From a virus, in the IMG/VR virus record IMGVR_UViG_3300042350_001802, positions 63,228-127,227 of that record: 64,000 nt of DNA, one strand, 5' to 3'. The position numbers and the translations under genes were made by a program. Positions 14,826-43,381 of the stretch are shown one piece after another. Under the pieces are notes generated by a model. That model saw nothing but the letters and a program-made list of their open reading frames with translations, had not been told where the DNA came from and searched no databases. Each line of letters starts with the position of its first letter. The first letter of the stretch is position 1.

Positions 14826-16183
14826 TGAAGATACTTATCAAAAATACACCTCTTCCTAAAAATCAAATAGGAAAGTATATTCCTAAGTTTCCTCCTGGTT
14901 ATTTACAAGCAATGCAGATGACTGGGTGGAATCCTTCTATGACACCATTTACATTTCCTCAGAGTATGATTAGTAATGTAAATATTACACCTATTAATAT
15001 ACCTTTAGATGGACTAGTAAATGAATCTACTGTTGATCGACCCCCTTCAGATATATTTCCATATGATTTTATTGGACCTGAGTTAGAAGGACAAGAAAGA
15101 GAACTTGACCCTGTAACCAAAGCTGCTTGGGAACAAGCACAGCGTGATGCTGCTATAATTGGAACTAGAGATACAGATGATGGAGAAGTTAGATATAGTG
15201 CAGAGGATCTTATGAAAATGAGACAACCTAAAACTACTATTACAACCACAACTTCACAACAGAATCTTTCTGGTCCCATTCTTGCTTCTATGATTACAGC
15301 TGGGTTATCTGGTCTTGGTAACATGTTGCAAAAAAATAATTTACAACAAGCATCTAGAAGGTTTCAGATAAGATCTGGAATGACGGATAGTTATTTTCCA
15401 GTGATTCCAAATTTAACAAGTAGAGGAACAACAGAAATTAATACAGGAGAAATGTTTCCTAATCTTCGTGTTCCTGTGCAGTTTCCTGGTAATCCATATG
15501 CTTCTATAAATCGTCAACCCTACTTTGGAATGGCGCAAGAAGGTGCGTTAATTCCAAAAGTTCCTTATGATGTCCCATCAATTAGTATACCTACAACTCC
15601 ATCGTTTAACTATACGATGGGCACTGATGTTTATTCAGATAGAGAAGAAGCATCATCTATATATCCATCAACAGAATCTTCTAGTGTAAATATAGTGAAC
15701 TCAGATACAAATGCAGAGATTTCATTTACACATAATAATCCTTTAAACATTCATTACGGTGATTTTGCAAGAAAATATGGTGGGACTAAAGGGCATCCAG
15801 ATAGTGATGGAAATGTTGCTATTTTCCAAAATATTGATACTGGAATAACAGCAGCTAGAGATCTTTTATTTGGTCCCACTTATAGAAACCTTACAATTTC
15901 ACAAGCAAGAAAAAGATGGGTGGGTGGACCTAGCAATTCTATTTCTAATATAGTAAAAGCTATGGGTGGAGATAAGCTTTTAAGTAGTATGACTGTTGAA
16001 GAACGTGAAAAGCTTATTAAAGAGTTTGCGAGATGGGAAGGTAAACAAGCGTACAATCTTTTAAAAGATATGAATTTAAAACCGTATCTTAATGATGAGT
16101 ACCGTGAAGGAGGAGAATATGACCTTACAGATGACGAAATAGATTATATATTAGCTAACGGAGGTGAGATAGAATACCTCTAA
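14825..16183 (+). CDS. Virion cargo protein with an NNPxNI-type lysozyme-like domain
   Basis: HNNPLNIHYG...AIFQNIDTGITA...LTISQARKRW; C-terminal YREGGEYDL...LANGGEIEYL module. Confidence 0.55.
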   Translation: MKILIKNTPLPKNQIGKYIPKFPPGYLQAMQMTGWNPSMTPFTFPQSMISNVNITPINIPLDGLVNESTVDRPPSDIFPYDFIGPELEGQERELDPVTKAAWEQAQRDAAIIGTRDTDDGEVRYSAEDLMKMRQPKTTITTTTSQQNLSGPILASMITAGLSGLGNMLQKNNLQQASRRFQIRSGMTDSYFPVIPNLTSRGTTEINTGEMFPNLRVPVQFPGNPYASINRQPYFGMAQEGALIPKVPYDVPSISIPTTPSFNYTMGTDVYSDREEASSIYPSTESSSVNIVNSDTNAEISFTHNNPLNIHYGDFARKYGGTKGHPDSDGNVAIFQNIDTGITAARDLLFGPTYRNLTISQARKRWVGGPSNSISNIVKAMGGDKLLSSMTVEEREKLIKEFARWEGKQAYNLLKDMNLKPYLNDEYREGGEYDLTDDEIDYILANGGEIEYL

Positions 16184-16185
16184 AC

Positions 16186-18174: not shown

Positions 18175-18228
18175 ACATTATAAGTTTAGTTTTAAACTTC
18201 GAAGATTTATTGTTATATTATAAGTAGA
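18172..18228 (+). promoter_or_regulatory. Tandem TAAAC-N7-(G/A)TTTA palindromes plus putative late promoter (ttgttatattataagtaga)
   Basis: Sites at 18172-18188 and 18193-18209; matches the element at 2216-2274. Confidence 0.55.
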
Positions 18229-18235
18229 GAATACC

Positions 18236-21233: not shown

Positions 21234-24200
21234 ATGCCAGATAAAAGTAATATTGACCCTGGGTTTGGTGTTTTAGTACCTAACAGACCATATGATGTTC
21301 CTGAACAAAGAACACCTGTGGTTGCACCTCCAGGTCCTTTATATGGAGAAGGACCATCTGTTTTACAAACAGAACAGGAAGCTCTAGATAAGTTTAGAAG
21401 ACAAGCTGGTTCTCATTTTGAGTTTCAATCTCTTATACAACCTATTCGTTATGATGATCCAATGTACGATAAATTACAACGTACATTTGATAATGCTGAT
21501 AGAGACTATCTATTTCAGAAGTTGGGGTTTATGCCTAACAGAGATAATGAAGATTTGTTTGCTAATAACTTAACTAGATGGCAGAAGTTGGGACTTGCAT
21601 GGGATCAGATGGGAGAACTTGCAAAAACTACATTTGCAGAGCAATGGGAAACAGAAGCAGAGTTTTGGGGTAATCTTGCTACAGCAAGAGTGAAAGACGC
21701 TTTCCTACCTTTTGGTGATCAAGAAGAACTACAAAGCATGTATGATAACATGCAGTCTATTAGTAGTAATAATTACATCCCATTAACTTCTGAAGAAAGA
21801 GCTGGTGACTATGGATTTGGAAAATTTTCTACAGCGCTAGGACAGTTTGGATTTACACTAGGTACAATAGGTGCTTTTGCTACACAACTTGGACTTGAGT
21901 ATGCATTTGCTGCTCTCACTGCTCCAGAAACAGGAGGAGCATCTATAGTAGCTGCTGGTGCTAGTACAGCAAATAAAGCAAGTCGATTACTTCGTATAGC
22001 TGAGATGTTTAAAAATCTTAATCGTTTTGAGAATACTGCTCAGACAACTAATAAGATTAAACAAGCATATGATTATTTAACTAACACACAAAATCTAAAA
22101 ACAGGTTTTGGTAAGTTTTACTCTTTTTCCAAACAATGGAATGCTGCTGCTGGAGAAGCTAAATTTGAAGCTGCTTTTTCTTATGGGGATCATGTTAACT
22201 CAGAAATAGAGAAAGCTAAACAACAGGGGATAACACTTTCATTTGCAGATAGAGAGAGAATTGAAAAGGATGGGATGGAGATTGCAATGAGAAACGGTAT
22301 AACAAACACAGGATTATTGTTTGTTATGAACCGTATGAACATGAACAATCTCTTTAGAGGTCCTTTTAATCCTCAGCGTCGTTATATGACCGAACTAGCA
22401 TCTAGTATACAAGATGACTTAGTTAAGGTGGGTGGGAAGACTATGTCTCGTTTTGAGGTTCCTTTCTTTACAAAACAAGGAATGCTTCAAGCAGGTAAGA
22501 GTCTTGGTACATGGACTGCTAATAGTGCTTGGGAAGGTGTTCAAGAAGTGGGTCAAGGTATATCTTCTAACTACTGGGAAGCATTTTATGATAATAAATA
22601 TAGTGAAGAAAAGGTAAACAATCTATATCTACTTGGTAAAACCATTGGGGATAGATTAGAAAGTAATGAAGCTTTTGAGGAGTTTATCAGTGGTTTTATT
22701 ATTGGTGCTCCAGGTAGTATGGTGAATGCTGGGTTAGGTAGATTAATGACCAGTGGTGCACAACGTGCTCAATATAAACAAGCAGTTAGTGACTATGCAA
22801 AGAAAATAAACGAATACGAGAATGATCCTTTAAGAGTGTTTGATCAGCGTAAAGCTAATGCTAATACGCAAATGTCTGTTTCTAGTCAAATGGACGAAGC
22901 TGTTCGTACCAATAATGTATACGCATACAAGAATCTTTCAAAAGAGCAGATGCGTGATATGATTATGTTAGGTATTCGAACTGGAAAACTTGATTACATG
23001 ATTGGCAATATGAAAGACCAGGTTGCTAATATGTCTGATGAAGATTTTCAAAAACAGTTCGCTATGGTGTCTGATGCTACTAATAGAAAGAAAGCAACAG
23101 ACTACATTAACGCTTTTGAACAAGAATCTATTAACATTCTTAAGGAGTATGATAAGACTAAACAACTTTTCCCAAATCCATATAGTAACACAAAAAATGT
23201 TGCAAAGGGTTCCCCAGAAGAAATTAATCAAAAGATTAAATATCAAGCGTGGGAAGATGCTGTACAAGATTTAGTATTTGAAAGAAATAACTACAACGAT
23301 ACGTTAAAACGTATGCGTGAGATATTAGGAGACTCTAAGGATTATATTGGTGATGCTCTTTATAACACATACCAGATGTTGACATCTGATAGAAGTGTAG
23401 ATAAAGAAATATCAATGCTTCAGTTAGAGATTGCTAATGATCTGAAGATAGAAAACAAAGATAAATCCGTACTAGACAGAATCAATAAAAAGAAAAAGCA
23501 GATTGAAGCTCTTAAAAAATGGAGACAGTCATACACTGCTATAGTTGATTTTAGAGATAACCCTCAACCTATTGACTTACTTCAAGATAGTACAGCAGAT
23601 CAGGAATGGAAAAATAAGTCTCGTGATGTATTTGAGGAAGTGTTAAATGCATACCAACTTGATGAAGATCTTACACCTCTTACATCAGAAAATGTAGGAA
23701 GAGCATATCAGGGTGTATTGGATTTTATTCAACTCCAAAAAGATAACGAGACAGCTGTAAAGAACATATCCTTTTTATCTTCTCCTGAAGGGTTTGATCA
23801 AAACTTTGGACAACGTGCATTACAAGCAGAACTTTTTTATAACAAAGTGCTACAGAATAGAAAAGAAACTATTCAAAAAAGAGAAGCTGTTTTACAAGCT
23901 TTAGAAGAGGATGCTGAGTTTTACAATCGTCCCGATGTACAGGAACTTGTTCAGATATTAAACCAAACTATTGCTGAAAGTGAGCATGATGCTTCTGCAG
24001 TTATTCTTGATATGCTTCAAGAAATATATGAGAAGGGAGAAATTGCAGAACCTGTAAATATTGAAGACACATCAAAAGACAGTGCAGATAAACCACTTAT
24101 TGGTGAAACACCGGAAGGAGATTATCTTATAGCATTTGAGGGCGTTAACTATCAAGTGTTTAAAGATGAACCAGAACTATTCTATGTAGAAATGCCAGAT

Positions 24201-27200
24201 GGTACTATTGATCCTATTGAAAATATTAATGTGCCACAAGCAGTTAAAGATGCTTTAAAAGATTATATAGCAAAAAAGACACAACCTCAGCAACCATCTA
24301 CTGCTGTTGTAGGTGGTCCACCTCCAAAATCATCTCAACCTTCCAATTTAACTTTTACAGATTTTCTTTCCAAGATTGCGAATGCGGATCAAGCAACTCT
24401 ATCTGGATTAGCTGAGGACATATCTAAAAATGTTACCACTGCACCATATTCTAATTTTAATAATGCAGAGCTTGGAATGATCTATGACGCTATGGAAAAA
24501 AGACAAGCGGAATTAGATTTACAAGCACAGAAAGCAAAACCAAAAGTTGGAACTAAATCTGAGAATGACACAGACTTTATACAAGAATATAATGAAGCTT
24601 TAACTAAGGTGAAGCAAATTGTTGATAAAGAAGGTGTTACAGCAAATGAGGTGAAAGCTGCATTTGCTAGCATGATGACTGTATTAAATACACTAGCTGA
24701 TGCTGCAGTACGTAATAAATACATTGCTAATCTGATTACACAACAGAATGCAATTATTGATCGTATAAATAAAATTAACTACGCTAAAAACCCAGTTCTC
24801 ATCAAGTCCACTATAGATGATATCTTTAAGAATAATACATCTTTAGAAACAGCAGTTCAAGAGATATTGGTGCTGTTTGAAAACTCTACAGATCCTTCTA
24901 TCAAAGAGGAAATGATATCCTATTTTGAAGAAGCATTTAAAAAGAAGGTAGATGAAATGACTGAATCTTTGAAAGCACTTGCAAGTCAAGGAGTTACATC
25001 AGAGGTTCTTAAAAAGTTTGCAGAAGAGACTACAAAGTTTAGAAACAATGTCATCGCTAGTCTTAACGAACTAGAAACACTTAGTGGTCAGATTGCGGAT
25101 GAAACAGCTAATAATAACTACAACCTTGCTGTAAGTGTAGATGAGTCTTTTACAAATCCTACACATAGGTATATTATTGATAATATATCACCCACCATCA
25201 AAGCAACTTTGTCGCAAACCATTGCGATAAGAAACCTTGTAAATGCTGGTATTCTTACAGAAGATGAAGTTGCAACTACCGACCAGGATATTTTAGTAGA
25301 AGCAAGCGATCTTATCAATCTTGGAGTTGCTCGTATTTTTACAATCGGTATTAACAAAGAGCTTCATCGCTATTTTACTCTTGGAAAGAAGGATAGAAAG
25401 AAAGACTTAGAAGATATTATAGCAACATACTTAGAGACCAAAGATGACGATTTTAAAGGACCAATAGCTTTAGAAACAGCTCGTGAGTTTATTAAAACTG
25501 CAGAAGACAATGGTCAGTCTGTAGATGTTCTTTTAGAAGCTTTAGAGATTCCCACTACATCAATTATTTCAGACGAACATAGAGATCTTCTTGATAAACA
25601 ACGTCGTGTACTTAATGACTTGCTTAGAAATAACGCAACATTAGATATAATGACAAGTCTTGATGAAAGACAAAACACCGCTCTTTCTTCTCTAGGAATG
25701 GAGACTGTTGAACCTTCCTATTTTATTGATGGAGAATTTATAAACAAGCTATCAAAGCTCTCTAAGAAAGATGCTGATAAGGTGGCAATGAAGTCTGAAT
25801 TAACAGCACTTGTAAATGAAGTTAAAGACGAAACTGATATAAAAGTTGCTAATAAGAAGATAAATACGTTTGTTCAAAAGTATGCATCAAATAATGCAAG
25901 AGCAGCTTCTAATCTTAAAAATGTTGTAATCTCCACTGTTAGTTATATATCTCAAACTCAGAATGCAATCGACAGTGGTGAAACCTCTAAAGAACCTCTT
26001 ACAGATAATGATATTAAGGGTGTTCTAAGTGGGAACACTGTCCCTTTGACATTAGCGCAGATCAACCAAGTACAGGAATTTGCTCTAAATGTGGTACTTG
26101 AGGATGCCAAGAAGACATTCAATGTTACCAGTGGGTATGTGGGATCTATTGATTTTACACCAGAAATGCTTCCTGATCCAACCGCAGGGTTTAGAACTAA
26201 GTTTTCTGTACTTCGTATCAAGGAAGCAGGTGATATAAGAACTTTAGAAGATCTTAATGCTCTTCTTAAAGTGGAGAATAATACAGTTAACACCCATACT
26301 GCTCTTAGAATGATAATGGATAGTGACTTTTCCACTCCTTCTGAGAAGATGATTGCGGGTAGACTTCTTACTATTATACCATCAACTGAAACTATTACTA
26401 TTGACAACGCTCAAGAAGATCTTGGTACATACGATGTTGATACTAATATGGTTACCATCAATCTTGCGTCAGTAGGATATAAAGAAGATGCTCCAACATA
26501 TCCAGTAGAAACACTTATTTTACATGAGCTTTTACACCGTGTAATCGAGGTAGAAGCATCTAACCCTAAGAGTTCTTTTTACAATCAAATTAGATCTGTA
26601 ATAGAGGTTGTAAAGAACAACCCAGCATCTAAAACTTTTTACGCATTCCAAGGAAATCTCACTGAAGATGAGCAAGTTAGAGAGTTTGTAATAGAAGCAC
26701 TCACTAATCCTGCGTTCCAATACCATTTGTCTCAGATTCAATACGCAAAGAGTGGAAAGACAGCATGGGAGAAGTTTGTAGATGTGTTGGTTAAGATGCT
26801 AGCAGCAGTCGGTATTAATGTAGATGGTACAGCACTAGGAGAAGTTCTTAATGTAACTGACGATCTTTTAAGATTTCAAGCATCAGAGGAAACACTTAAG
26901 AGAATATCCGTAGCTAATAAAGAACAACTTGGTGAATTACAAAAAGAGGTTGAGTCTGATACGACTATGATACCATCTGTAAAAGATGCTATGATGTCCT
27001 TGATTAACAAGAAGTTACAAGGATATGCATCTGCTGAGATGTACAATAAGACTAAAACCATGAATCCATTTAAAGGATCTGATGGTATAACTTATTACTA
27101 TGCAATTGATAATGGGTCTCTACTTGTAGTACGTAAAGGTCGCGATGGTTATAAAGAATCTAAGAAACAGTCTATTAAGGTTGAGATTATAAATCAATTG

Positions 27201-29417
27201 ATTAAAACTAATAAGATTGGTTCTTTTATTCCTAAAAACATTGTAGAAGAAATCTTGAATGTTGCTGGTGATCCTAAAGTGATGGGCACTTATTCTAGCG
27301 GTGCAATGGTGAGTGATGGTGCTACTATTGGTGAAACACGTTTTCCAAATGCTTCTGAAGTAGTTGTAGAAATACCAATCAGAAATCCTCAAGATTATAC
27401 CAAGTTTAAGAATGACTTCTGGGCAGCTATGAAACTCCGTGGTGCTGCACGTGCAGGTGCATTGGATACAATGCGATCTAAGTATGGATCTACAGCAGTT
27501 GGTGATTATGGTGAATTAGCTAATGCTATTGGCAGTCGTGCAGATATAGAGCGTCTTGTTAGAATGGGATATATTTCTATTGGAAAAACTGGAGCTAACA
27601 CTCTTGGTGATCTCACTTATGATACTAATCTGACACAGGATGAGTTATTTGAAATGTATAAGTTTGTTTTAGGTGGTGGTAAACTTGATATGTCAGAGTA
27701 CTCCGATATATCAAACTATATCAATCGTACTTTATCTTCATTGTTTAAAGTTCCAATCTCTGCTGAACTTCAAACAAAAATAGAATCAGAACTTTTCAAT
27801 ATTGAACAAGAAGAATACGATGAAGTGCCCCCACCACCTGCTGAAGATGGAGTGGTTATATTCTCCACTACTAGTAAGGGGATGGAAGAAGATCCTGCAG
27901 CATACGCAGCAAATAAAGATGATATTGAACTTACAAACACTGCAGTGGAAACTAATCCGTTAAGATCCTTCTATCCTGATGGATATACAGATTATAATAC
28001 TGGTGAGTTTGTAGAGAATAAGCAATTTAAACTGTATTACAATAAAGTGAGAGCAGTTGTAAATGCTTTATCTGTAAAGAATCTTGAGGAGTTGAAAGGT
28101 GTTATGGTCACCTTTGATATTGACAATGAGTTTCTAAGATGGGATGGATCTGCACAAGATAGTGAATGGAAAGAAGCACAGAAAGGTGTAGTAGGATACT
28201 TATCAGATAATAAAGGAAACCCATATATTTTTAATAAGAAAGGTGATATTGTTGGTACACTAGATCGTAACAACCTTGCAGATCAGAAAGGATTAAATAA
28301 TGGGGAGAACCAGATTGTATACTTCTATACGTTTGCTAATCCTGAAAGACCAGCTGCTAAAGCTGCACAAAAGAATGATCCTGAAGGTTTTGCAAAACTT
28401 ATGGAAATGCGCAAGATGGTTATGTCTGGTACTCCTGTAATATCAGCACTAACTAGTGTTTCTCAAGGACAGTTTAATAAGAAGGTGTTAGTTAATCCTA
28501 CTAATGCTAATAGACAAGATACGCGTAATGATGAGTTTAGAGATCAATTATTACAACCCCATGTAACATTTGCATTCTCTAATAAGTCTGGAACACTTCT
28601 TGCAAACGTAAAAGCTCCTAATGGGTCAGTCAATAGTTTTGGATTGTTTGCACCTAATATGCGATATGTTTCTATAAAAGTTGGTGATAAACAAATGCCA
28701 ATTACAGATTATGTTATGGAACTTATGCGTGTATATCAAGAGGTGTTGCTTAGAGATCCTAAAGCAGCAGAGCAAATCCAAAGCGGTCTTGTAATGTTTA
28801 ATAACAATATGTGGTTGACAGGACTTGATAAGAACGTTCAGATTCCTAAAAGTCTTCGTAGAGTGGGGGTAAAAAAATACACTACAACAGCACAGGGTAA
28901 AAGACTACCTAGTTTAAACTATTATGATTTGTTTAGCGTGGTGAATGGTGTTGTAGTAATGAATGATAAAAATGCTCAGCTTTTAAGAAACTATCTGAAT
29001 AACCAACCTATGAATATTTGGTCTCAGTGGTTATCTGGAAAGCAAGAGTTTATGATTCCAGTGATTGTTACACGTGGTGATGAAAGAAGTATTACATTTG
29101 TAAAGAAAGATTATAAAGAGTTCTTATTCAAGGATGTAGGGTTGAAATCTAATGTTGTAGAGATTCCTGCAGAGGAGTATTTAACAGCATATAATTCAAT
29201 TGTTCACTTTACAGAAGGACAACCTTTGAATCCTGTAACACAGGTGATAGCACCAACAACACAAGATTTGATTGATGATCCAAACGCGATAAAGAAGTCT
29301 ATTGAAAACGTCGGTGATGATGTTAAAACAGATGAAGAAGAAATTAAAGCTCTGAAAAAAGGAAGACGTTTTAAAGTTCCTGGGTACACTGAAATATTTG
29401 AAAAAATCTGTAGGTAA
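21234..29417 (+). CDS. Giant ejection protein with a zincin-like domain
   Basis: 2727 aa; N-terminal hydrophobic G/A-rich helices; HELLH (26523-26537) followed by EFVIEALTNPAF; adjacent to the RNAP gene. Confidence 0.7.
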   Translation: MPDKSNIDPGFGVLVPNRPYDVPEQRTPVVAPPGPLYGEGPSVLQTEQEALDKFRRQAGSHFEFQSLIQPIRYDDPMYDKLQRTFDNADRDYLFQKLGFMPNRDNEDLFANNLTRWQKLGLAWDQMGELAKTTFAEQWETEAEFWGNLATARVKDAFLPFGDQEELQSMYDNMQSISSNNYIPLTSEERAGDYGFGKFSTALGQFGFTLGTIGAFATQLGLEYAFAALTAPETGGASIVAAGASTANKASRLLRIAEMFKNLNRFENTAQTTNKIKQAYDYLTNTQNLKTGFGKFYSFSKQWNAAAGEAKFEAAFSYGDHVNSEIEKAKQQGITLSFADRERIEKDGMEIAMRNGITNTGLLFVMNRMNMNNLFRGPFNPQRRYMTELASSIQDDLVKVGGKTMSRFEVPFFTKQGMLQAGKSLGTWTANSAWEGVQEVGQGISSNYWEAFYDNKYSEEKVNNLYLLGKTIGDRLESNEAFEEFISGFIIGAPGSMVNAGLGRLMTSGAQRAQYKQAVSDYAKKINEYENDPLRVFDQRKANANTQMSVSSQMDEAVRTNNVYAYKNLSKEQMRDMIMLGIRTGKLDYMIGNMKDQVANMSDEDFQKQFAMVSDATNRKKATDYINAFEQESINILKEYDKTKQLFPNPYSNTKNVAKGSPEEINQKIKYQAWEDAVQDLVFERNNYNDTLKRMREILGDSKDYIGDALYNTYQMLTSDRSVDKEISMLQLEIANDLKIENKDKSVLDRINKKKKQIEALKKWRQSYTAIVDFRDNPQPIDLLQDSTADQEWKNKSRDVFEEVLNAYQLDEDLTPLTSENVGRAYQGVLDFIQLQKDNETAVKNISFLSSPEGFDQNFGQRALQAELFYNKVLQNRKETIQKREAVLQALEEDAEFYNRPDVQELVQILNQTIAESEHDASAVILDMLQEIYEKGEIAEPVNIEDTSKDSADKPLIGETPEGDYLIAFEGVNYQVFKDEPELFYVEMPDGTIDPIENINVPQAVKDALKDYIAKKTQPQQPSTAVVGGPPPKSSQPSNLTFTDFLSKIANADQATLSGLAEDISKNVTTAPYSNFNNAELGMIYDAMEKRQAELDLQAQKAKPKVGTKSENDTDFIQEYNEALTKVKQIVDKEGVTANEVKAAFASMMTVLNTLADAAVRNKYIANLITQQNAIIDRINKINYAKNPVLIKSTIDDIFKNNTSLETAVQEILVLFENSTDPSIKEEMISYFEEAFKKKVDEMTESLKALASQGVTSEVLKKFAEETTKFRNNVIASLNELETLSGQIADETANNNYNLAVSVDESFTNPTHRYIIDNISPTIKATLSQTIAIRNLVNAGILTEDEVATTDQDILVEASDLINLGVARIFTIGINKELHRYFTLGKKDRKKDLEDIIATYLETKDDDFKGPIALETAREFIKTAEDNGQSVDVLLEALEIPTTSIISDEHRDLLDKQRRVLNDLLRNNATLDIMTSLDERQNTALSSLGMETVEPSYFIDGEFINKLSKLSKKDADKVAMKSELTALVNEVKDETDIKVANKKINTFVQKYASNNARAASNLKNVVISTVSYISQTQNAIDSGETSKEPLTDNDIKGVLSGNTVPLTLAQINQVQEFALNVVLEDAKKTFNVTSGYVGSIDFTPEMLPDPTAGFRTKFSVLRIKEAGDIRTLEDLNALLKVENNTVNTHTALRMIMDSDFSTPSEKMIAGRLLTIIPSTETITIDNAQEDLGTYDVDTNMVTINLASVGYKEDAPTYPVETLILHELLHRVIEVEASNPKSSFYNQIRSVIEVVKNNPASKTFYAFQGNLTEDEQVREFVIEALTNPAFQYHLSQIQYAKSGKTAWEKFVDVLVKMLAAVGINVDGTALGEVLNVTDDLLRFQASEETLKRISVANKEQLGELQKEVESDTTMIPSVKDAMMSLINKKLQGYASAEMYNKTKTMNPFKGSDGITYYYAIDNGSLLVVRKGRDGYKESKKQSIKVEIINQLIKTNKIGSFIPKNIVEEILNVAGDPKVMGTYSSGAMVSDGATIGETRFPNASEVVVEIPIRNPQDYTKFKNDFWAAMKLRGAARAGALDTMRSKYGSTAVGDYGELANAIGSRADIERLVRMGYISIGKTGANTLGDLTYDTNLTQDELFEMYKFVLGGGKLDMSEYSDISNYINRTLSSLFKVPISAELQTKIESELFNIEQEEYDEVPPPPAEDGVVIFSTTSKGMEEDPAAYAANKDDIELTNTAVETNPLRSFYPDGYTDYNTGEFVENKQFKLYYNKVRAVVNALSVKNLEELKGVMVTFDIDNEFLRWDGSAQDSEWKEAQKGVVGYLSDNKGNPYIFNKKGDIVGTLDRNNLADQKGLNNGENQIVYFYTFANPERPAAKAAQKNDPEGFAKLMEMRKMVMSGTPVISALTSVSQGQFNKKVLVNPTNANRQDTRNDEFRDQLLQPHVTFAFSNKSGTLLANVKAPNGSVNSFGLFAPNMRYVSIKVGDKQMPITDYVMELMRVYQEVLLRDPKAAEQIQSGLVMFNNNMWLTGLDKNVQIPKSLRRVGVKKYTTTAQGKRLPSLNYYDLFSVVNGVVVMNDKNAQLLRNYLNNQPMNIWSQWLSGKQEFMIPVIVTRGDERSITFVKKDYKEFLFKDVGLKSNVVEIPAEEYLTAYNSIVHFTEGQPLNPVTQVIAPTTQDLIDDPNAIKKSIENVGDDVKTDEEEIKALKKGRRFKVPGYTEIFEKICR

Positions 29418-35400: not shown

Positions 35401-36703
35401 AGGATATAATTACGGAGAGTTTTCGTATATTGCAGTGACACCTATTAATCTGATTAACAAGCTGTATGGTGAAGCTGTTCAAGAGTTTAATAGAGCATCA
35501 TCTGAACAGAAAAATGTTTCCTATAGAGATTTTAAGGATATGTTTAGGAAGAATAACCCAGTGTTTTATGCTGAAAGGTCTAGTATAAACCCTATGACCG
35601 GGGAACTTTCTAAACAAGGTAAGTGGTATGTTAGTGGAGTGAACTTAGACTTTACCAAAAATGTTCCGAAAGTAGGTAATCCGTTGATTGACGCTGGTGT
35701 TAAACCAACTGATATGAACGGTAATGCTGCTAAAGATGTGGTGATGGCAAGTGAGTCTACACAATTTATTGGGTTTAAATCTGGAAGCGCTGCAATATCA
35801 TCTACTGATAAGTATAGACTTGCTTGGGGTGATAAAGCTAATACAGGCAAGTATACCTCTTCAGATGTTGTAATGGTGTCTGCAAGTGGCGTATTTAGAG
35901 GAGTAACTAGAGAAGAAGTAATTAAAACTTTTGAGTCTAAATATATACCCATCTTAAATAAAGCTATGGAAGCAGGTGTTAGTTTTAGAGTGGGTAATCA
36001 ATACGATAAAGGTAACTTAGGAGATTTCTTAGTTGCTGATCATCTTCGTAAAAATGGATATGTTGAACAGAAGTTTGAAGGATATTCTAGATGGTTTCCT
36101 AAAAAGTCAGATCAAGCAAATGAGTTTTTACTTGCTGATAGTTTAGCACCTATACAACAAAATTTTGCTGATAGCGCTACTAGAAGAATGCGACCTGAGT
36201 TTGCTGGAAAGTCAACTATGGATCTTATTATATCTGGAGATAGAACTAGAAGTACTAGAGCTAAGACAGATATATCTAGAATGTTAAAAGATTACAATCT
36301 ATCTAAAATATCAGAACTTGTGGGTAAGGTTATCAGAATGACTGATCAACAAGGAAGAGTGGTATACACAAAGATTACTAGTGTAAATGAATTTACACAA
36401 CAATATCAAGATAAGACATGGATGAAAGAGGGTTGGACTAAGGAAGTTACAGATAGTCTTGTAGGTAAATACCCTTATGCTATAGAGTTTGAGGTGGTTA
36501 GGAAACCAGCAAGTTCTGCAGAACCTTTGCAAAAACCTACAGATTTAACTTCTAAGATAGATGCATGGATTTCTAGTGAGCTTCCCTGGAGTATTGAAAC
36601 ACCTTCTGATAAGATTGCTAAAATGTACGAGAACGAGAAACTTACAGGTGAAACAATTGAAGAATTTTTACACAGGATGTCATGTCTTGGTAAACTAAAA
36701 TAA
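29417..36703 (+). CDS. Virion RNA polymerase (double-psi beta-barrel, crAss/phi14:2 gp66-like)
   Basis: 2428 aa; catalytic GSDFDIDK (DFDID at 33548-33562) preceded by YRIPTQ; also EADGQG, FDKFSL and FESGTKV motifs. Confidence 0.9.
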   Translation: MANNCSINIKADKLPIVLKKVEYYMFKALDRSGISFLQLPKTNVDEKLQLLENARLLLEEDILLYSKKAVKLKDTEEGALYESFAQNLQGINANWSEASALFLKHFGGIINLRTKFRLDEAGLIDLDETVDEEEALNTKFVYDQPANEIDPVDNIDKGIELFLRSITKKDVFDDYGFNVLVDYGSFVRRLSTDLENTVNTNEIISRLETLKTSVPEYQQILDKLQFKPTDNADDLQFKINFRNSFAKALIPIYVTSLENGVVKVIEATTAKKNAYEQRVNSNFFRRGMPVTVNGKKVNLASKEGGVWVLTKSDLSKLQKFMDEKSIPAGEITERKIQFLEALGFEFSPESRELLKKVSNLNTVVKYIYDHTVRILEKGDRIKSPIDAISKTVFINKKKYQGQRGNLNIITNFEIKYNKSFNTERSIVNQDGNRQHAIQHHNNFTIVNKFLSDPQSYPTLQSIIQSEPSMFWLDPIRNPSIANSVLLNSLFYYSPQDPNFGARRRVTKNQQGVVFSPTEGEFVTISVTNTGGMQMKDERGLKSDSAGSTSLTSVDKLIQDINMFMFRGITSVQRLSDKATDLGVSLNYYIDPVTGAPVQRILGGATNYESIFNTDQFLESTLNALRDVMKSAYLAKNGFYDELAVASKTIMSPSNFGVFTSILSSDVKSILNSMIDNAVSVEDIDNMMLENTDEREVILFDIQEYMTEYRERFKDLLNPVLSLVPTTNIFGADGAGKAKDVDNIIDYYLANTFLQDIENLKVFFGDSFFFKAFHKRSSKDSATGIFTIIDDAIIERFNNYSDAQGYGANTNLGGRMLAERLYNQGVINNDSKNSVIELQQVSKSFRSGVISDVNFKSSYIKNIKDNIERLRSQGLISDENYKLYKDNLQKVISESYNGVEADGQGKCTFDFYRIMSILTSDWSREHEDAYKKITLYAHYQSLVESEKDEAKRAEYLMKRDAVGYDPLLEVYFPPKKFQYSGPMEYSKAVNGQEYGQMIPVFDKFSLQPLIPTIIKGTADEHLANKMMFNGVGYVKFESGTKVESPKNKDSYYAEYNESNPQSRSIYTLEQMIEMGRNVRFKSEQTLFFNHLKQQVRIDSNVHLTSIFGSQIRKLVLSNILGMDTEFNKSEFVRIYNKYTGLINSLIRAEKRDLYGKMGVRENADRELSISNIKKLVQFFFEEIDKKNQDSNVRRALNYNEETGQFEIPLDGSVQAQIIEGIIISSLNNRIVRHRTNGSMLTQVAITGSERVQFSKEKSKEALKTFGNTELKYYDVIEENGKLTVTPMQVKIGLTPQWRPLLNLKHIDGNPIGSIERLNEMLKNDTWKKRNKESIRLTAYRIPTQGLNFSEVMEVAEFLPAAFGDAIILPSEIVIKTGSDFDIDKMFVFYPNLVTEGENSGTVVKDGSKQSIENELFATMQELILHPSNYMQLVTPSTSFHIMPTVNKIYKKLYGKEREQTDYKDTQLIDRDYNIRKFKSLLTGKNDLGIAAIANTFNVLFQLSNAVSSSQFLETNEIRTLLKSPSVIKDRETDKVLEIKFGNIYDQDGMYKSEFFAEFISAFVDVAKDDYVFAINVVTELSPLIFSMKFQGYSTESILAFINQPAIRDFTKNLAKYNSMIVDTYLESEKKRIAKIIDTSSPADIEENEQIKVFQARLEKLKYSARRKALSETLKNLGFGDIKPYRKSMFNFLTKNNKKLSSYSGAFTQESLMDSIKPDEFDVSMLSQDQKLSQLAMLFELENQKIISDSMTETESFLNFDTKPHASSFDAYLRNSKYMKAKAGGSILSIDTINTIKDLSPIAPLNIGKEIVSILESAFPIRNNRKINAEVLEAALAARQDPNIINVRTEDDMNTLARTFKNDFMSYILYNYLDKSEAGREFFKKEFNTDKTFVEYMKELVETPKLLDLFNKVKDDLSVEDYQELIKMYPFIQNIVPKSGEKNTQLVGFKLVENSSHTVDKESVIAQFEDAINLTGEESKDVRMFLRNLALYSTFQSGYNYGEFSYIAVTPINLINKLYGEAVQEFNRASSEQKNVSYRDFKDMFRKNNPVFYAERSSINPMTGELSKQGKWYVSGVNLDFTKNVPKVGNPLIDAGVKPTDMNGNAAKDVVMASESTQFIGFKSGSAAISSTDKYRLAWGDKANTGKYTSSDVVMVSASGVFRGVTREEVIKTFESKYIPILNKAMEAGVSFRVGNQYDKGNLGDFLVADHLRKNGYVEQKFEGYSRWFPKKSDQANEFLLADSLAPIQQNFADSATRRMRPEFAGKSTMDLIISGDRTRSTRAKTDISRMLKDYNLSKISELVGKVIRMTDQQGRVVYTKITSVNEFTQQYQDKTWMKEGWTKEVTDSLVGKYPYAIEFEVVRKPASSAEPLQKPTDLTSKIDAWISSELPWSIETPSDKIAKMYENEKLTGETIEEFLHRMSCLGKLK

Positions 36704-36712
36704 TAAATCAAT

Positions 36713-39700
36713 ATGAGTGCTTGTCCTAATCTAAAGTCTCAAGAGTGGAAAACATTGTCTAGTGCAATCGGTGAAGATCGTGCTATGCTGGCATTTATTC
36801 GTAATAATGAAGCTATCCCTTCTGTAGAAAAAGCTCGTGAGCTTATAACAGATAGAGGATTGCTAGAGTCTTTTGAAAAGATGCCACTACTCACTACAGA
36901 ATTAGTGAATGGTATTTTAAAATCTAGGGGTTTAATTACAGATGAGACTACCAGAATTGATGGAAACACTTATTATAGAATAGATAAGAGTGGTCCAAAT
37001 ATTGGTCAGCGTCTTGGAGATTTTACCGATCAGTACGGAATGATATTAGATTATCGTGGGGATTATGTACGTCCTACAGAATCTGGCATGGAACAGTTTA
37101 ACTCTTTTGCTGGCACTGTAAACTTTGACAATAGAACTCTTACAGAGATATCTAAGTCTTTTCTTTCTTCTATTGGTGTTGGTATTCAAACTCAGAATGA
37201 TGTATTAGCAAAATATGGATCTAATGGTGTTGCTGACTTTGCAGCTAGAATGGTTCGTATTCAGGAAGGATTTGAAGATGAAGCTTTACCAGAAGAAGCA
37301 TTGCACTTCTTTTTGGATATGATTGATCAATCCACTCCTGAACTTATGGAAGCGTTAGATAAGATACGCGAGCTTCCTATCTATAAGTCTACATTAGAGC
37401 AGTACAAAAACAATAAGAACTATCAGACTCCTGATGGTAAGATTCGTTTTGAAAAGATTAAAAAAGAAGCATTAGCTAAACACCTTGCACAAAAACTTAA
37501 GGAAAAGGAAATGCGTGGGTGGTTAAAAAATCTATGGGACTATATTGTATCTGCAATTAAGAATCTTACATTCAATAAAGATCCTATGGAAAAGCTTCAG
37601 TTGCTTTTCTTAAAAGGTAGGATTGATGCTCTCCAATCTAATTTTAATTCTTCAGAAATCTACAATCAGCTTTCTGATGAGTATAAAAACTTCTATGAGT
37701 CTCAAGTTTCTACGGAAGAGCAGAGACAAACAGTAGCTGCAGTGTTTCAAGCTACTGCTCCTATTATGTTTGAACCTGAAAATCACAAACTTACGATGCG
37801 TGATGCAACAGGTACAGATCATATAATGAAGTCTACAACATCTATTTTAGGGTCTGACTATATAACTGAACTTGATTCTCTGGATGTTATTCTTGCTATC
37901 ACTACAAACTACTCATTAGAGATGGGTGCGCAAGCTGGTATTACACTTGGGGACGATGCTCAAGTGACTGGTAAAAAGCTCACTGACTATCTTGTAAATC
38001 TAATTGTACAGAATAAAGTAGAAGAGGAAGAGATACAGCAGCGTTTGGGTGATCGTATTAAAGAACTATTGTTTCAAGCAGCAGAGAGTAAGAGAAAAAC
38101 CTTATTTGGTACTGCAGTGCATAGTATTGCAGAAGCTGCTATTCTTAATAAACCTATAGACTTAGATGCTTTAGATCCAATTATCTACAATATTATGGAT
38201 CGTAAAACGATTGAGCGTTTAGTATATGGTACTGCATCTGAACCTGGAATTATAGGGATAATCAGAGATCTTAAAAATAGTGGTCATGTTATTATGACTG
38301 AGGTTGCTGTAGGTAATGGAGAGATTGGTGGTATCATAGATATAATTGCAATCGATAAGAAAGGAGTGGCACACATCTACGACTTTAAAACAAAGTTTAT
38401 AAATCCTGAGAAAACAGCTAAGAAGTTTAATACACTAGAAGACTACTTCAACTATGTAACTTCTCTTCTTAGTAAAGGGGGTATTAAAGATGAGGAGCAA
38501 ACTCTACCAGAATTAGTTGGTAAGCGCAGATCCCAGATGGAAAAATATGGTCAGCAGCAATCTATTTATAAGAAGCTACTAATGCAGTCTGGGGTTAAGG
38601 TTGGAGACATTAATATTATTGGTGTACCATATACGCTAAACACTAATACTAACAAGGTGGATGATATTAAACCATTTGTTGTAAAAAACATAGGGTTTAA
38701 TGATCGTATTGCAAACTCTTATTTCCCAAATCTTGATCCTACAATGGATGCTAATGCTACAAAAGAGGTTAAGAAGATTGAGGATGATAGAGTGAAAGCA
38801 TTAGAAAGTATATCAAAAGAAAAGCTTAAGGAGACGTTTGCTAATATGCAAGCTCGTTTAACTCAAATCTATAACTACTTTTCAAGAAATAGAGAAGGAC
38901 GTGTTGTATATGAAATGTTAAACGATGAAGCTACAAAAAGTAATAGGGTTAAATTACAAAGAGATCTTGTTACTGATGTAATTGAGAATTTTGATAGTTT
39001 TAACGATATGCTTTCTGCACAAAAAACTTTTGTGGAGATTATAGATTCTGCTGGTCCGATACTGAATATCTTAAGTAAGAGATTCCAAGAGCTTAGAGCT
39101 TTAACACCTGCAGATACAAAAGCAGCAAGTGCTAAGCTTTCTGAAATGAAAAAGATTAGAGACTTTATTGTAGGTTATCAGAATATGTTTGATGAGATGT
39201 CTCAATATCTTGACAAGACTGAAAATAACCCATTAGTTAGTCGTATTAATGAAATGCAAGGGATTATAGCAGGTATAAGAGTTGACTATATTCATGGCAT
39301 TACTCCTGAGACTATTAAGATTTTAAAGGATGTATTTAGTCCTCAAGAGGTTGAGAATATGAAGCGTGAGTATAATGAGATGATTAAATCTGCAGAGGAA
39401 CGCGGTGATAAACAAAGAGCGGAACAACTTAGAAAAGAGCTTGATGAGTTGCCATCTGAGCGTATGATTGCAGAACTTTTGAGTGGTAATAAGGGTGATG
39501 TAGGTTGGTTTTTCTCAAAGTTTCTACCAGCAATATCAAATCCTGATATTATTATAGCAGGTCTTGCTAAACGTCTTAAAGCAGTTTTAGATAAGGTGCG
39601 TCTTATAAATAAAGACTTTAGAGATCGTTTAGATGTAGAATTTACAAAACGTGCTGCTGTATATGGTAGAGGTCTTGATGTTAAAGCAATCAATCAGTCT

Positions 39701-42700
39701 CTTGTTTATACGCAAAAAACAATATCTAGAAGCGGTGAGGAGATGAACCAGTTGTTTTTCTTATCTGAATTTGATGAGAAACTTTATTATGATTATGATA
39801 AGCTACGCTATGAGCTTGAGCAAGTAAGAGAAAAGTTTAGCAATGGAGAAGCTACTGAAGCTGAGTTGAGAGAAGCAAAAAAGAATCTCAAGGAGTTTGA
39901 ATTAAAATACCTTGAGTCTCAATATACAGATGAGTATTATCAGATGAGCTCTATCCTTGATACCACTGTAACTTATAAAGGTAGAAAACAGACTGTCAGA
40001 GAAATAAGAGATGGTATTATAGATGGTATGCGTGCTATTCAAAGAAAATATCACCGAGATGACATAGCAGAAGGTGCTGTAAGTGAAGCAGATTTACAAG
40101 AACTTCAAATGTATAGAGAGCAATTGACAGAGTTACAGGAGAAAACAAATCCTGATGGTAGTAAAAAGACTGGAGATGCTCTTCGTATAGCAGATATTCT
40201 TCAACGTTATAGTGCTAATAGCAAAAAGATGTATGAGAATGTCGAGATGGGTGGGTTATTTGAAAGAAAAAGAGAGCGTGTAAAACTCGCTTATGGTGAA
40301 AATAGTGAGGAGTATAAACGCTGGATGGCAAATAATACACGTCTTGTAATATCAGATCGTTATTATGAAGAGATGGAGTCTATTATGACCGAGCTTGCAG
40401 ATCTCACACAAGATCCTTATGGAGATAGAAAGAAAGAATTATACGCTGAGTTGCGCACATTAGTGTCTCCATTTAAAGATAAAGACGGATATATTAAAGG
40501 TGAACTAATTGATAATCAAAGAATTGAGAGAATAAAGAACGTACAAAGAGAAATTGATCTGTTGAATAGTCTTACAAACGACTATACATCTTTAGGATAT
40601 ACAAAGGAGGAAGCAGCAGAATTAAAGCGTCAAAGATTCTTGAGTTCTATCACTGATCCAAATCATCCTAACTATGGAGACTTTAATCCTTTTGCTGTAG
40701 ATGATATAAAGAAAGCAAGGGAAGCTCGTCTTAAAGCAGATAAGAATCTTGAAGAAAGAATCAAGCGTATTGATGTTCTTAGAAAGCAATTGTTTGCAAT
40801 GCGCAAAACTGAGAACACAAAGTATTACTATCAGGAATTAGAAAATCAAGAACGTTTATATGCAGACGCTGCAGGGATTTCTTATGAAGAGCTTAAGAAA
40901 GATAATAGATTATATTCTCAGTTCCGTGAATCTGAATGGTTCCAGACAAATCACACGCATAAAGTTAGAAATGTATTTGATGAGAATCTTGGAGATAATC
41001 TTCAATCTGAGTCTTGGGAACCTATATACATCTGGAGGCGTAATACCCCAGTAGAAGAGTATATAGAAGAAAAACCAGCTAGTCATTTTTATAAGTATGT
41101 ACTTCGTGAATCATTTGTTGATGATAATGGTAAGACTGTACAGCTTATAAATAAAGATAATAAGGATATACAGGGAAGACCTAAACCTAAAGCTAATACT
41201 GTTTACAAAGCAAAATATGGTGCAGATCATCCATACTTAAATGAAAGATATAAAGATCTCAAAACAAAATATGAGAACAACACTGCTTCTGAAAAAGAAC
41301 GTGTTGACTATGAGAACCTTATCTACATTCATAAAGAACTGATTGATGCTCAGCAGGATATAGAATATCGATATCGTTTAGGTTTTGGTGTTCCATTTAT
41401 GGAAAAAAACCTACTTCAAAGAACTGTTGAAGCTAAAGGTCAAAATCTTAAAGAAGCTGCACGTAATACAGTTAATACCATTAAGCGTGGATTTGTACGT
41501 ACAGAAGCAGACTTGAATGAAGGTGTCCCAGATTCTACCTCCTCTGCAGCTCGTATTGCTACGATGGATAACGAAGAGGTTAAATTTATACCAGTTCGTT
41601 TTGCAAGTAGAAGTGACGCAGATAATGCTTCATACGATGTATGGGGTGCTATGCTTAACTATGTATCCTCAATCAATCGCAAGAAAGAACTTGAAAAGGA
41701 ACTTGCGTTTGTAAATGCTGTAGAAGAAGTTATTGGAGACAAGATGAATCAACCTAAGAGTGAGACAAAGAATCTTATACTTAGTAACATCTTTAAAAAG
41801 GTATTTAAAGATGAGGACATTGCTAAAAGAATCAACTTAGGAAGTAATAATCGTGCTGAGGTTATAAAGAGTTTTGTAAATAGTGTGCTATATAATGAGG
41901 AGTACTTTGAAGGATATGATGTACTAGGTGTAAATACGCAGAAGACTATTAGTAGACTTATGAGTTTAAGTAGCTTTACACTACTTGGATTTGCTCCTTT
42001 TAACTGGACGGTGAATGCTCTTTCTGGTAATGTACAAGCTACGATTGAAGCTGTTGCAGGAAAGATGTATGGGTATAGAGATTTTCTTTCTGCTAAAAAG
42101 ATCATTTATGCTGATAGTGTTGTAGGAGGTGAGTATGGATCTATTATGAAAGATATGATGGCAGACTTTGGAAAGGTTGGTAATAGATCTTTCTGGGGTC
42201 AAATGATGGAGGTATATGATCCTATTCAGGGAGAGTTTGAAAATGAGTACGGAAGAAAAACAAACTATAATAGCGTTAAGAACATTTTAAGTTTGGGTGC
42301 TTTTTCTGGTAAGATCTGGGGTGAGTGGGAGATTCAGACATCTTCATGGGTAGCGTTTATGAAAAACGTGCGTCTTTATAATGGTAAGTTCGTAGATAGA
42401 GAAACATTCCTAACAATGAAGTTAGGATCTGAGTTTTCTGGAATGACCATGAAAGACTATACAACACAGCGTTTAGAAGCTTTGAAGGAGTGGGATGGGT
42501 TAAAGGTTAATCTGTTAGACGCACATGAGTTAGATGTAAATGGTAAACTTAGAATTAAAGCTGAGTACCAAGATGCTTTTAAAATTGGTAGTCAAGAGTT
42601 TTCCGATATCGTTGCTAAGCTGCATTTTATGCAGAAAAAGATAAACGGATCGTATGCTGAGTTTGATAAAGCGTATGTACAGAAGACATCACTTGGTCGT

Positions 42701-43381
42701 ATGCTATTCTTCTTCCGTAGATATTTCTTACAGCTTGCAATGAATCGTTGGGGTACACGTAGACCAGATTTTGAAGGGATGGGTGTAGAGCAAGGGTTTT
42801 ATCTTACATTCTATCAGACATTTGTAAAAGATCTTCTTAAATTTAGATTTAACATTGCTAAGAACTGGCAGTCATACAGCCCTCAAGAAAAGAGAGCAAT
42901 ACAAAAGACACTTGCAGAACTTGGTATTATTCTTTCTGTGTTTGCAATGTATACTGTTCTATTTGGATATGATGACGATGATGAAGATCGTTTTGCAAAA
43001 CTTCGTCAGCAATCATGGGGAACGCAGTCTATGCTGTTTGTACTACTAAAAGTAAACTCTGAAACTGGTCAGTTCTTACCAGTTGCAGGTGCAGAGGAAT
43101 TAAACCGTATATACAGTAATCCGTCTCTTCTTTGGAACCAAGTGACTAGTTATATTAGTCTTTCTAAGATGACACTGATGCATATAGGAAACTTAACACC
43201 ATTCTTTGATTATGATAAGTCTCTATACTATCAGAAAGACAGTGGTGAATCATGGCTTAAAGAAGAAGGAGATAGTAAGTTTGTAGCAGAGTTTATTAGA
43301 ACCTTTACAGGATATACAGGTAAGACGTTTAATCCTGTCGATGCGGTGAAAGGATTTGAGTTCTCTCAGAGATTGAAATAA
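36713..43381 (+). CDS. Giant ejection protein with degenerate zincin and PD-(D/E)xK nuclease-like domains
   Basis: 2222 aa; EEALH (37292-37306); GTAVH...TEV...GIIDII...IYDFKT (about 38108-38392); helical C-terminus. Confidence 0.7.
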   Translation: MSACPNLKSQEWKTLSSAIGEDRAMLAFIRNNEAIPSVEKARELITDRGLLESFEKMPLLTTELVNGILKSRGLITDETTRIDGNTYYRIDKSGPNIGQRLGDFTDQYGMILDYRGDYVRPTESGMEQFNSFAGTVNFDNRTLTEISKSFLSSIGVGIQTQNDVLAKYGSNGVADFAARMVRIQEGFEDEALPEEALHFFLDMIDQSTPELMEALDKIRELPIYKSTLEQYKNNKNYQTPDGKIRFEKIKKEALAKHLAQKLKEKEMRGWLKNLWDYIVSAIKNLTFNKDPMEKLQLLFLKGRIDALQSNFNSSEIYNQLSDEYKNFYESQVSTEEQRQTVAAVFQATAPIMFEPENHKLTMRDATGTDHIMKSTTSILGSDYITELDSLDVILAITTNYSLEMGAQAGITLGDDAQVTGKKLTDYLVNLIVQNKVEEEEIQQRLGDRIKELLFQAAESKRKTLFGTAVHSIAEAAILNKPIDLDALDPIIYNIMDRKTIERLVYGTASEPGIIGIIRDLKNSGHVIMTEVAVGNGEIGGIIDIIAIDKKGVAHIYDFKTKFINPEKTAKKFNTLEDYFNYVTSLLSKGGIKDEEQTLPELVGKRRSQMEKYGQQQSIYKKLLMQSGVKVGDINIIGVPYTLNTNTNKVDDIKPFVVKNIGFNDRIANSYFPNLDPTMDANATKEVKKIEDDRVKALESISKEKLKETFANMQARLTQIYNYFSRNREGRVVYEMLNDEATKSNRVKLQRDLVTDVIENFDSFNDMLSAQKTFVEIIDSAGPILNILSKRFQELRALTPADTKAASAKLSEMKKIRDFIVGYQNMFDEMSQYLDKTENNPLVSRINEMQGIIAGIRVDYIHGITPETIKILKDVFSPQEVENMKREYNEMIKSAEERGDKQRAEQLRKELDELPSERMIAELLSGNKGDVGWFFSKFLPAISNPDIIIAGLAKRLKAVLDKVRLINKDFRDRLDVEFTKRAAVYGRGLDVKAINQSLVYTQKTISRSGEEMNQLFFLSEFDEKLYYDYDKLRYELEQVREKFSNGEATEAELREAKKNLKEFELKYLESQYTDEYYQMSSILDTTVTYKGRKQTVREIRDGIIDGMRAIQRKYHRDDIAEGAVSEADLQELQMYREQLTELQEKTNPDGSKKTGDALRIADILQRYSANSKKMYENVEMGGLFERKRERVKLAYGENSEEYKRWMANNTRLVISDRYYEEMESIMTELADLTQDPYGDRKKELYAELRTLVSPFKDKDGYIKGELIDNQRIERIKNVQREIDLLNSLTNDYTSLGYTKEEAAELKRQRFLSSITDPNHPNYGDFNPFAVDDIKKAREARLKADKNLEERIKRIDVLRKQLFAMRKTENTKYYYQELENQERLYADAAGISYEELKKDNRLYSQFRESEWFQTNHTHKVRNVFDENLGDNLQSESWEPIYIWRRNTPVEEYIEEKPASHFYKYVLRESFVDDNGKTVQLINKDNKDIQGRPKPKANTVYKAKYGADHPYLNERYKDLKTKYENNTASEKERVDYENLIYIHKELIDAQQDIEYRYRLGFGVPFMEKNLLQRTVEAKGQNLKEAARNTVNTIKRGFVRTEADLNEGVPDSTSSAARIATMDNEEVKFIPVRFASRSDADNASYDVWGAMLNYVSSINRKKELEKELAFVNAVEEVIGDKMNQPKSETKNLILSNIFKKVFKDEDIAKRINLGSNNRAEVIKSFVNSVLYNEEYFEGYDVLGVNTQKTISRLMSLSSFTLLGFAPFNWTVNALSGNVQATIEAVAGKMYGYRDFLSAKKIIYADSVVGGEYGSIMKDMMADFGKVGNRSFWGQMMEVYDPIQGEFENEYGRKTNYNSVKNILSLGAFSGKIWGEWEIQTSSWVAFMKNVRLYNGKFVDRETFLTMKLGSEFSGMTMKDYTTQRLEALKEWDGLKVNLLDAHELDVNGKLRIKAEYQDAFKIGSQEFSDIVAKLHFMQKKINGSYAEFDKAYVQKTSLGRMLFFFRRYFLQLAMNRWGTRRPDFEGMGVEQGFYLTFYQTFVKDLLKFRFNIAKNWQSYSPQEKRAIQKTLAELGIILSVFAMYTVLFGYDDDDEDRFAKLRQQSWGTQSMLFVLLKVNSETGQFLPVAGAEELNRIYSNPSLLWNQVTSYISLSKMTLMHIGNLTPFFDYDKSLYYQKDSGESWLKEEGDSKFVAEFIRTFTGYTGKTFNPVDAVKGFEFSQRLK

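Follow-up and report, generated by a model that had tools for sequence, protein, structure and literature searches.

Facing terminal cysteines in three giant cargo proteins of a crAss-like phage and a proposed head-to-tail disulfide chain

Background

Three adjacent genes of a viral genome encode about 7,400 residues of protein with hardly any cysteine, apart from those placed where the end of one protein faces the beginning of the next; what are these few cysteines for? The genes lie in a 64,000-nucleotide stretch of DNA (IMG/VR virus record IMGVR_UViG_3300042350_001802, positions 63,228 to 127,227; hereafter the window, whose first letter is position 1), which makes up the latter half of a record of 127,227 bases that has direct terminal repeats. 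A late-gene run on the + strand closes with three abutting giant open reading frames (ORFs), all on that strand, which we call B (the first giant cargo protein, 21234-29417, 2,727 amino acids), C (by its sequence a crAss-type virion RNA polymerase, 29417-36703, 2,428 amino acids), and D (the third giant cargo protein, 36713-43381, 2,222 amino acids); the stop codon of B and the start codon of C share one base (TAATG). We consider it probable, with substantial room for doubt, that two inter-protein disulfides, one between Cys2726 of B and Cys5 of C and the other between Cys2423 of C and Cys4 of D, join these proteins into one head-to-tail chain in the assembled particle.

Crassviruses are the most abundant human gut phages. 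The arrangement of their three giant proteins in the head, and the delivery of these proteins, are stated to be open questions in two structural papers (PMC10172136, 2023; PMC13434306, 2026), the second of which also leaves open how the three proteins relate to the three parts of the virion RNA polymerase (vRNAP) of phage N4.

Cysteines at the junctions of B, C, and D

B has a single cysteine, its penultimate residue Cys2726 (tail ..EKICR; codon at 29409-29411); C has three, namely Cys5 (29429-29431), Cys906 (within GKCTF; 32132-32134), and Cys2423 (36683-36685); and D has Cys4 alone (36722-36724). All five codons are TGT on the + strand, and the outer ends of the series (the N-terminus of B and the C-terminus of D) have no cysteine. 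These computed positions agree exactly with those that a preliminary description of this DNA had counted by eye, including its statement that four of about five cysteines sit at the two gene junctions and that the outer ends are without them. The residues at the junctions are well conserved: Cys5 of C is invariant in 20/20 and 14/14 aligned relatives; C2423, G2425, and K2426 are invariant at the other end of C; and D begins with the motif MxxCPN..W, whose C4, P5, and W12 do not vary among 49 relatives. Cys906, the only internal cysteine and the only one outside the junction pattern, is the majority residue among near relatives and is missing from the sister clade.

From the cysteine content of the other ORFs in the window (1.18%; 111 of 9,375 residues), about 87 cysteines are expected over the 7,377 residues of B, C, and D, as compared with the five seen, and the probability that random placement would bring at least four of five within the 40 junction-facing residues is 4.3e-9. 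Of the 36 further pairs of neighboring ORFs that share a strand in the window, not one has a cysteine on both facing ends. The cysteine pattern is real and lies far beyond chance.

The identity of C follows from comparisons at the sequence level. A profile of C and 13 relatives matches the phi14:2 RNA polymerase (6vr4_A) with an E value of 8.5e-21, and the catalytic motif DFDID (residues 1378-1382; 33548-33562, + strand), in which D1378, F1379, D1380, I1381, and D1382 are invariant in 14 relatives, is of the DFDxD form named for the phi14:2 gp66 kind of polymerase (10.1101/2020.03.07.982082). By tblastn, C matched 98 phage records at less than 60% identity (mostly crAss-like or uncultured gut phages, by organism name), and the feature under the match is annotated as an RNA polymerase in many of the rows listed. 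The RNA-polymerase-associated cargo proteins of phi14:2 and crAss001 were found in particles by mass spectrometry (record notes; PMC10172136), and from this proteomics we infer by analogy that C, too, is packaged in the particle.

D has homologs in crAss001 (gp49), in phi14:2 (gp076), and in crAssphage (the C-terminal part of gp44); C and D share only 21-27% identity with their homologous counterparts in crAss001 and phi14:2. For B, no similarity to crAss001 gp47 or phi14:2 gp078 was detected. With phi14:2 gp076 and crAssphage gp45 it has just a zincin-like region in common, and the motif HELLH of B (residues 1764-1768; 26523-26537, + strand) lies in the region that resembles the zincin regions of those two proteins. 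Sequence searches of the PDB with B alone, with C alone (E 0.01), and with a profile of D gave no match, megablast found no near-identical DNA in the phage collection, and no Pfam family accounts for the whole of B, C, or D.

Conservation across crAss-like phages

The preliminary description had named conservation of the terminal cysteines beforehand as a test of the proposed chain, and had asked further whether they co-occur in adjacent orthologs. A scan of viral contigs yielded 80 related loci, which were read under translation table 11 or, where only that opened the frames, with TAG read as Q. From 82 sources, our survey took one representative for each of 47 clusters (lineages), formed at a 70% identity threshold for the polymerase core; crAss001 and crAssphage were treated separately.

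Among the 63 junctions of adjacent giant ORFs in these 47 lineages, 60 have a cysteine within 10 residues of both facing ends, the distance from the C-terminus being 0-6 residues for the upstream cysteine, and the downstream one lying at position 2-7. Neither cysteine is found at two junctions, one between the 992-amino-acid ORF of the window and B, and the other a split of D in locus L004 that is probably due to a frameshift; the two cysteines are therefore either both present or both absent at 62 of 63 junctions. Outer C-termini are devoid of cysteine (0/44), and only three of 36 outer N-termini have one: L024, in which the upstream gene is cut by the contig end; L063, in which the upstream gene is on the other strand; and L048, which belongs to a Cys-richer lineage. 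Internal cysteines are rare in the surveyed proteins (113 of 277,348 residues, or 0.041%). The junction cysteines are encoded by both TGT (105 codons) and TGC (16 codons), and the pattern holds at 16-25% protein identity.

Larger homolog sets give the same picture, and on both counts, conservation and co-occurrence, the expectation was strongly borne out. For homologs of D in a larger protein collection, a cysteine occurs among the first 10 residues in 70/72 and among the last 10 in 0/72. Proteins with the C-terminal modules of C (described below) have a cysteine among the last 10 residues in 112/120 and among the first 10 in 85/120, and 106/120 contain at most three cysteines in all. Each of the 12 homologs of B (12/12) has a single cysteine as its last or penultimate residue, in the conserved tail ..IFEKIC[RK].

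Two features of the surveyed loci are recorded here in their own right. In L029, L033, L034, L045, L047, and L064-L080 the frames of the polymerase block open only when TAG is translated as an amino acid; each giant gene has 3-60 in-frame TAG codons in the 11 TAG-recoded loci that were read under that code, and the other ten were assigned by a script that picks the code giving the most long open frames. These loci, too, keep the junction cysteine pairs. The giant genes of L050, L010, L059, and L004 have frameshift-like breaks, probably assembly errors, that mimic exceptions to the cysteine rule (a false C-terminal cysteine in L050, truncated ends in L010, L059, and L004). L050 had been a candidate exception, with a C-terminal cysteine and a fused relative at 66-74% identity, and was ruled out as a frameshift artefact.

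Covariation with gene fusion and fission

The number of junctions differs among lineages, and the cysteines follow it. Single fused polyproteins (L038, L043, L056, L060, and L070; 4,652-5,346 amino acids) contain no cysteine at all, and two-protein forms have exactly one cysteine pair, located at their single junction, whether the break separates B from a fused CD protein (L051 and crAssphage) or a fused BC protein from D (many loci). Comparison of L051 with the fused L043 places the break in a Lys/Pro-rich linker. In L022 an extra break falls inside what is one protein in L027, and the new junction has its own cysteine pair, at a place where L027 has no cysteine. On a tree of the polymerase core we count at least seven split/fused changes at the junction of B with C and at least four at that of C with D, each with the matching cysteine state; the tree is a quick maximum-likelihood one of 52 chosen rows (near-duplicates and broken or heavily truncated loci left out) with long branches, such that the exact counts of changes are soft. 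This exact covariation with fusion and fission, as read from the sequences, favors continuity of the chain as the selected trait.

The cultured and reference crassviruses conform to the rule. The proteins gp47, gp50, and gp49 of crAss001 have the same terminal cysteine pattern as B, C, and D (gp47, Cys2339 of 2,341 residues; gp50, Cys5, Cys1334, and Cys2404 of 2,412; gp49, Cys5), as do gp078, gp077, and gp076 of phi14:2 (Cys1797 of 1,797; Cys3 and Cys2179 of 2,180; and Cys3), which correspond, judging from the numbering offset, to gp67, gp66, and gp65 of the phi14:2 paper. In the crAssphage prototype, gp45 has Cys1956 of 1,957 residues and gp44 has Cys3, with no C-terminal cysteine in gp44 because C and D are fused there. 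Unlike B, crAss001 gp47 is encoded on the opposite strand; the counterparts of B in crAss001 and L063 are both so placed and still keep the C-terminal cysteine, which excludes a DNA-level cause at gene junctions.

Two other pairings of the same cysteines were considered, namely intramolecular cyclization of C and a bond from B to D. Both were rejected on parsimony, because the pair at each junction is gained and lost on its own.

Comparison with phages A4 and N4

A bond of the proposed kind has been seen directly in another phage. In the cyanopodophage A4, the C-terminal helix of gp27 lies in a cleft of gp26 and is fixed there, inside the head, by a disulfide between Cys1715 and Cys5, as determined by cryo-electron microscopy (PNAS 2025; PMC12002296). 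The sequences of Anabaena phage A-4L show the corresponding signature: Cys1715 is the sole cysteine of the 1,717 residues of ORF27, Cys5 is the sole cysteine of ORF26 (1,114 amino acids), the two genes are adjacent, and the signature is kept in all four relatives examined (4/4), at 23-27% identity. In both systems, adjacent large ejection proteins, packaged in A4 and probably so here, have facing terminal cysteines. Cys2726 of 2,727 in B and Cys2423 of 2,428 in C are each, like that of gp27, the only or nearly the only cysteine, close to the C-terminus, and Cys5 of C and Cys4 of D are each, like that of gp26, within the first eight or so residues of an otherwise Cys-poor protein. The signature thus matches a real bond in the sole system in which the bond was seen. 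There are differences: in A4 a single link joins two proteins, with no polymerase involved, and the assembly is a pentameric ring, whereas B, C, and D would have two serial links, with the polymerase in the middle, and covary with gene fusion.

N4 (Schitoviridae) offers a comparison of another kind. Its gp50, the vRNAP, is a giant ejected polymerase of 3,500 amino acids with a T7-like polymerase fold, and the statement in the preliminary description that it lacks cysteine proved correct (0 Cys); cysteine is likewise missing from gp51 and gp52, which are ejected with it. Because gp50 is a single polypeptide, no link is needed. In its passage through the tail, unfolded or loosely folded, N4 vRNAP is likened to beads on a string (PMC13434306).

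The proposed chain

We propose that the two disulfides would stitch three otherwise nearly Cys-free cargo proteins into a quasi-linear chain of about 7,400 residues. From split genes, the phage would thereby obtain the equivalent of what other crassviruses encode as a fused polyprotein, and the chain would be an analog of the N4 vRNAP, which is made in one piece and has no cysteine. A disulfide is the simplest chemistry for a single conserved cysteine on each of two facing termini. Each cysteine is 0-6 residues from its terminus, so each link would leave only a tiny stub, and the scarcity of other cysteines would prevent loops. The bonds would hold the proteins together while they are packaged and while they pass one after another through the tail, and would be opened by reduction once in the cytoplasm of the host; the formation of the bonds in crassviruses, their role in packaging and passage, and their opening in the cytoplasm are all inferred. 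Many inter-subunit disulfides are present in crAss001 particles, and the crAss001 cargo must partly unfold to pass constrictions of under 50 Å in the tail (PMC10172136); together, and by analogy with that phage, these observations make bonds at the junctions plausible here.

The head-to-tail disulfide chain had been put forward in the preliminary description, with putative roles in fixing a 1:1:1 stoichiometry and the order of ejection and in release by reduction, and the comparative part of that proposal has stood up (conservation, co-occurrence, and the A4 precedent), with structure prediction giving no verdict on the junction itself: co-folding of residues 1-700 of D with residues 2330-2428 of C, with alignments, gave scores of 0.38, 0.27, and 0.20 against a mark of 0.32. 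Of the separate ends, the tail that is conserved at the C-terminus of C (some 52 amino acids; 36545-36700, + strand) came out in the model as three short helices, of which the third finishes at Cys2423, with a predicted local distance difference test score (pLDDT) of 72-89 and modest confidence, the alignment having only six sequences. In the model of the N-terminus of D, also of modest confidence (mean pLDDT 65.8), residues 1-9 form a coil ahead of the first helix, and Cys4 is on this coil. These two models, too, lend plausibility to such a bond. In a Foldseek search of the PDB, the N-terminus of D had no match at E ≤0.001; the weak rows were PD-(D/E)xK nucleases and zincin proteases, and the A4 proteins were not among them.

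Several observations weigh against the proposed chain. No disulfide between these cargo proteins has been observed in any crassvirus. The cargo is made in a reducing cytoplasm, and a search of the phage genome for thioredoxin and glutaredoxin genes found none; an Erv1 search of the phage genome, which gave no match and whose control also matched nowhere, weighs neither way. At one of the 63 surveyed junctions (L030) only the downstream cysteine is present, the upstream one being 31 residues from the end, and the expected cysteine is missing in 2/72 homologs of D and 8/120 proteins with the modules of C. Because the lineages are related, there are fewer independent observations than the raw counts suggest, and the softness of the tree extends to the number of changes derived from it. 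As for the precedent, BLASTP and profile searches with the A-4L proteins against B, C, and D gave no match better than E 0.1, and this lack of sequence similarity makes A4 an analogy rather than a homology; the A4 authors, moreover, describe the gp27-gp26 bond as stabilizing the packed pentameric ring (the pre-ejectosome), and not as part of an ejection thread (PMC12002296).

The last point leads to the alternative that survives best, although we still judge it unlikely: the disulfides form, and serve only to staple compact packed cargo in the head, with no role in threading, ejection order, or redox release. Beyond the A4 bond, described as stabilizing a C-terminal helix in the cleft of a pentameric ring (PMC12002296), it would fit the short helices ending at a cysteine in the model of the C tail, and the conserved motifs at both termini, which suggest docking surfaces. 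A staple does not lead one to expect that cysteine pairs come and go exactly with fission and fusion, a peptide linker replacing the pair in fused forms, and a sequence of thousands of residues with almost no other cysteine is better suited to moving through a channel than to stapling alone.

That the facing cysteines are bridged by a shared metal ion (for example, zinc), with no disulfide, is very unlikely. Thiolate pairs at an interface can bind metal, and such a site could form in the reducing cytoplasm; two ligands are nevertheless insufficient for a stable site, and there is one conserved cysteine per terminus with no second conserved Cys or His beside it, the flanks varying widely across the order. 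In A4, moreover, the same signature is a disulfide (PMC12002296).

We regard it as highly improbable, too, that the terminal cysteines bond elsewhere, be it to another copy of the same protein, to a head or portal protein, or to a cofactor or lipid. Pairing cannot be read from sequence, and many disulfides occur among the head and tail proteins of crAss001 (PMC10172136). With another partner, however, fused polyproteins would still need their cysteines, and they have none; nor would one expect the outer ends to be so nearly free of cysteine (0/44 C-termini and 3/36 N-termini, two of these three having the partner gene elsewhere or cut off), or the junction cysteines to be jointly present or absent at 62/63 junctions. 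The probability of chance, a gene-calling artefact, or a DNA-level feature of gene junctions is negligible, despite the uniform TGT codons in the window and the abutting or overlapping genes, in view of the random-placement probability of 4.3e-9 in the window alone, conservation at 16-25% protein identity and with the first gene on the other strand, the use of both TGT (105) and TGC (16), and the absence of the pattern from the other window junctions (0/36).

Returning to the two disulfides proposed for B, C, and D, we also put forward, much more tentatively, a generalization that we think has a lesser though appreciable chance of being right: that throughout Crassvirales a disulfide may do the work of a peptide bond. 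The injected polymerase and its partners would be parts of a modular polyprotein, encoded jointly or separately and even on opposite strands, that terminal cysteines clasp together after translation and that the reducing cytoplasm, serving as a compartment sensor, unclasps to free an active polymerase. If true, this would be a redox-gated delivery device that would also explain why cysteine is so strongly avoided in every ejected protein. If the cysteine rule itself holds, it would account for the fusing, splitting, or moving of these genes without loss of function, and would tie crassvirus delivery to the one-piece polymerase of N4. Cys-free proteins with facing terminal cysteines would then be a signature that predicts ejected chains in uncultured phages, and the cysteine rule makes concrete, cheap predictions for phages that are already cultured.

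With respect to earlier work, a literature search (excluding supplements and the journal version of the phi14:2 preprint) found no description of terminal cysteines in crassvirus cargo. In PMC10172136, the terms 'cysteine' and 'non-reduc' are absent and the passages on disulfides concern tail and portal proteins; the text of the phi14:2 preprint contains neither 'cysteine' nor 'Cys', and what it proposes is cleavage of the fused polyproteins and no link between split ones. Known already, then, is the single link of A4; what appears to be new, from our sequence comparisons, is a two-link chain bearing a polymerase and the order-wide covariation of its cysteines with gene architecture.

Other features of the giant genes and their neighborhood

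Near its C-terminus, C contains two modules of about 140 amino acids each (residues 2088-2230 and 2231-2375; 35678-36541) that are 55-74% identical to modules located at quite different positions in more than 100 giant proteins; outside the modules, these proteins either share only about 20-30% identity with C or cannot be aligned with it. The proteins that share these modules carry AlkB-like (PF13532), helicase (PF13604/PF13245), kinase (PF06414/PF13671), and RNase H (PF00075) domains, as well as PF08719, PF18760, and PF25176. On the sequence comparisons, this looks like a shuffling of payload modules among polyvalent cargo proteins. Neither module has a match in Pfam or PHROGs, and for the second there is a weak ASCH lead from Atlas (0.80).

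In D, residues 194-198 (37292-37306) read EEALH where the zincin of the sister clade reads HEFAH, the first His being lost throughout the clade of the window; B, in contrast, keeps its HELLH (1764-1768) intact. Thus the protease-like domain seems, from these motifs, to sit in different proteins of the chain according to lineage. Residues 434-700, approximately, of D (38012-38812) form an exonuclease-like region (phrog_298, E 4.6e-7; phrog_69, E 1e-4), in which D543, D557, and K559 are invariant.

Upstream of B, three further + strand ORFs (452, 659, and 992 amino acids; 14825-21214) have no cysteine in their 2,103 residues, as compared with about 25 expected at the window background, and gave no family match beyond weak PHROG matches. 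They are probably further cargo or ejected proteins, and they are outside the Cys-linked chain, the junction of the 992-amino-acid ORF with B being Cys-free on both sides. At the other end of the block, just after D (at about 43400), the coding strand and the GC skew (the strand asymmetry of G over C) both change sign, ORFs being encoded by the + strand as far as 43381 and then, between 43412 and about 58900, by the - strand.

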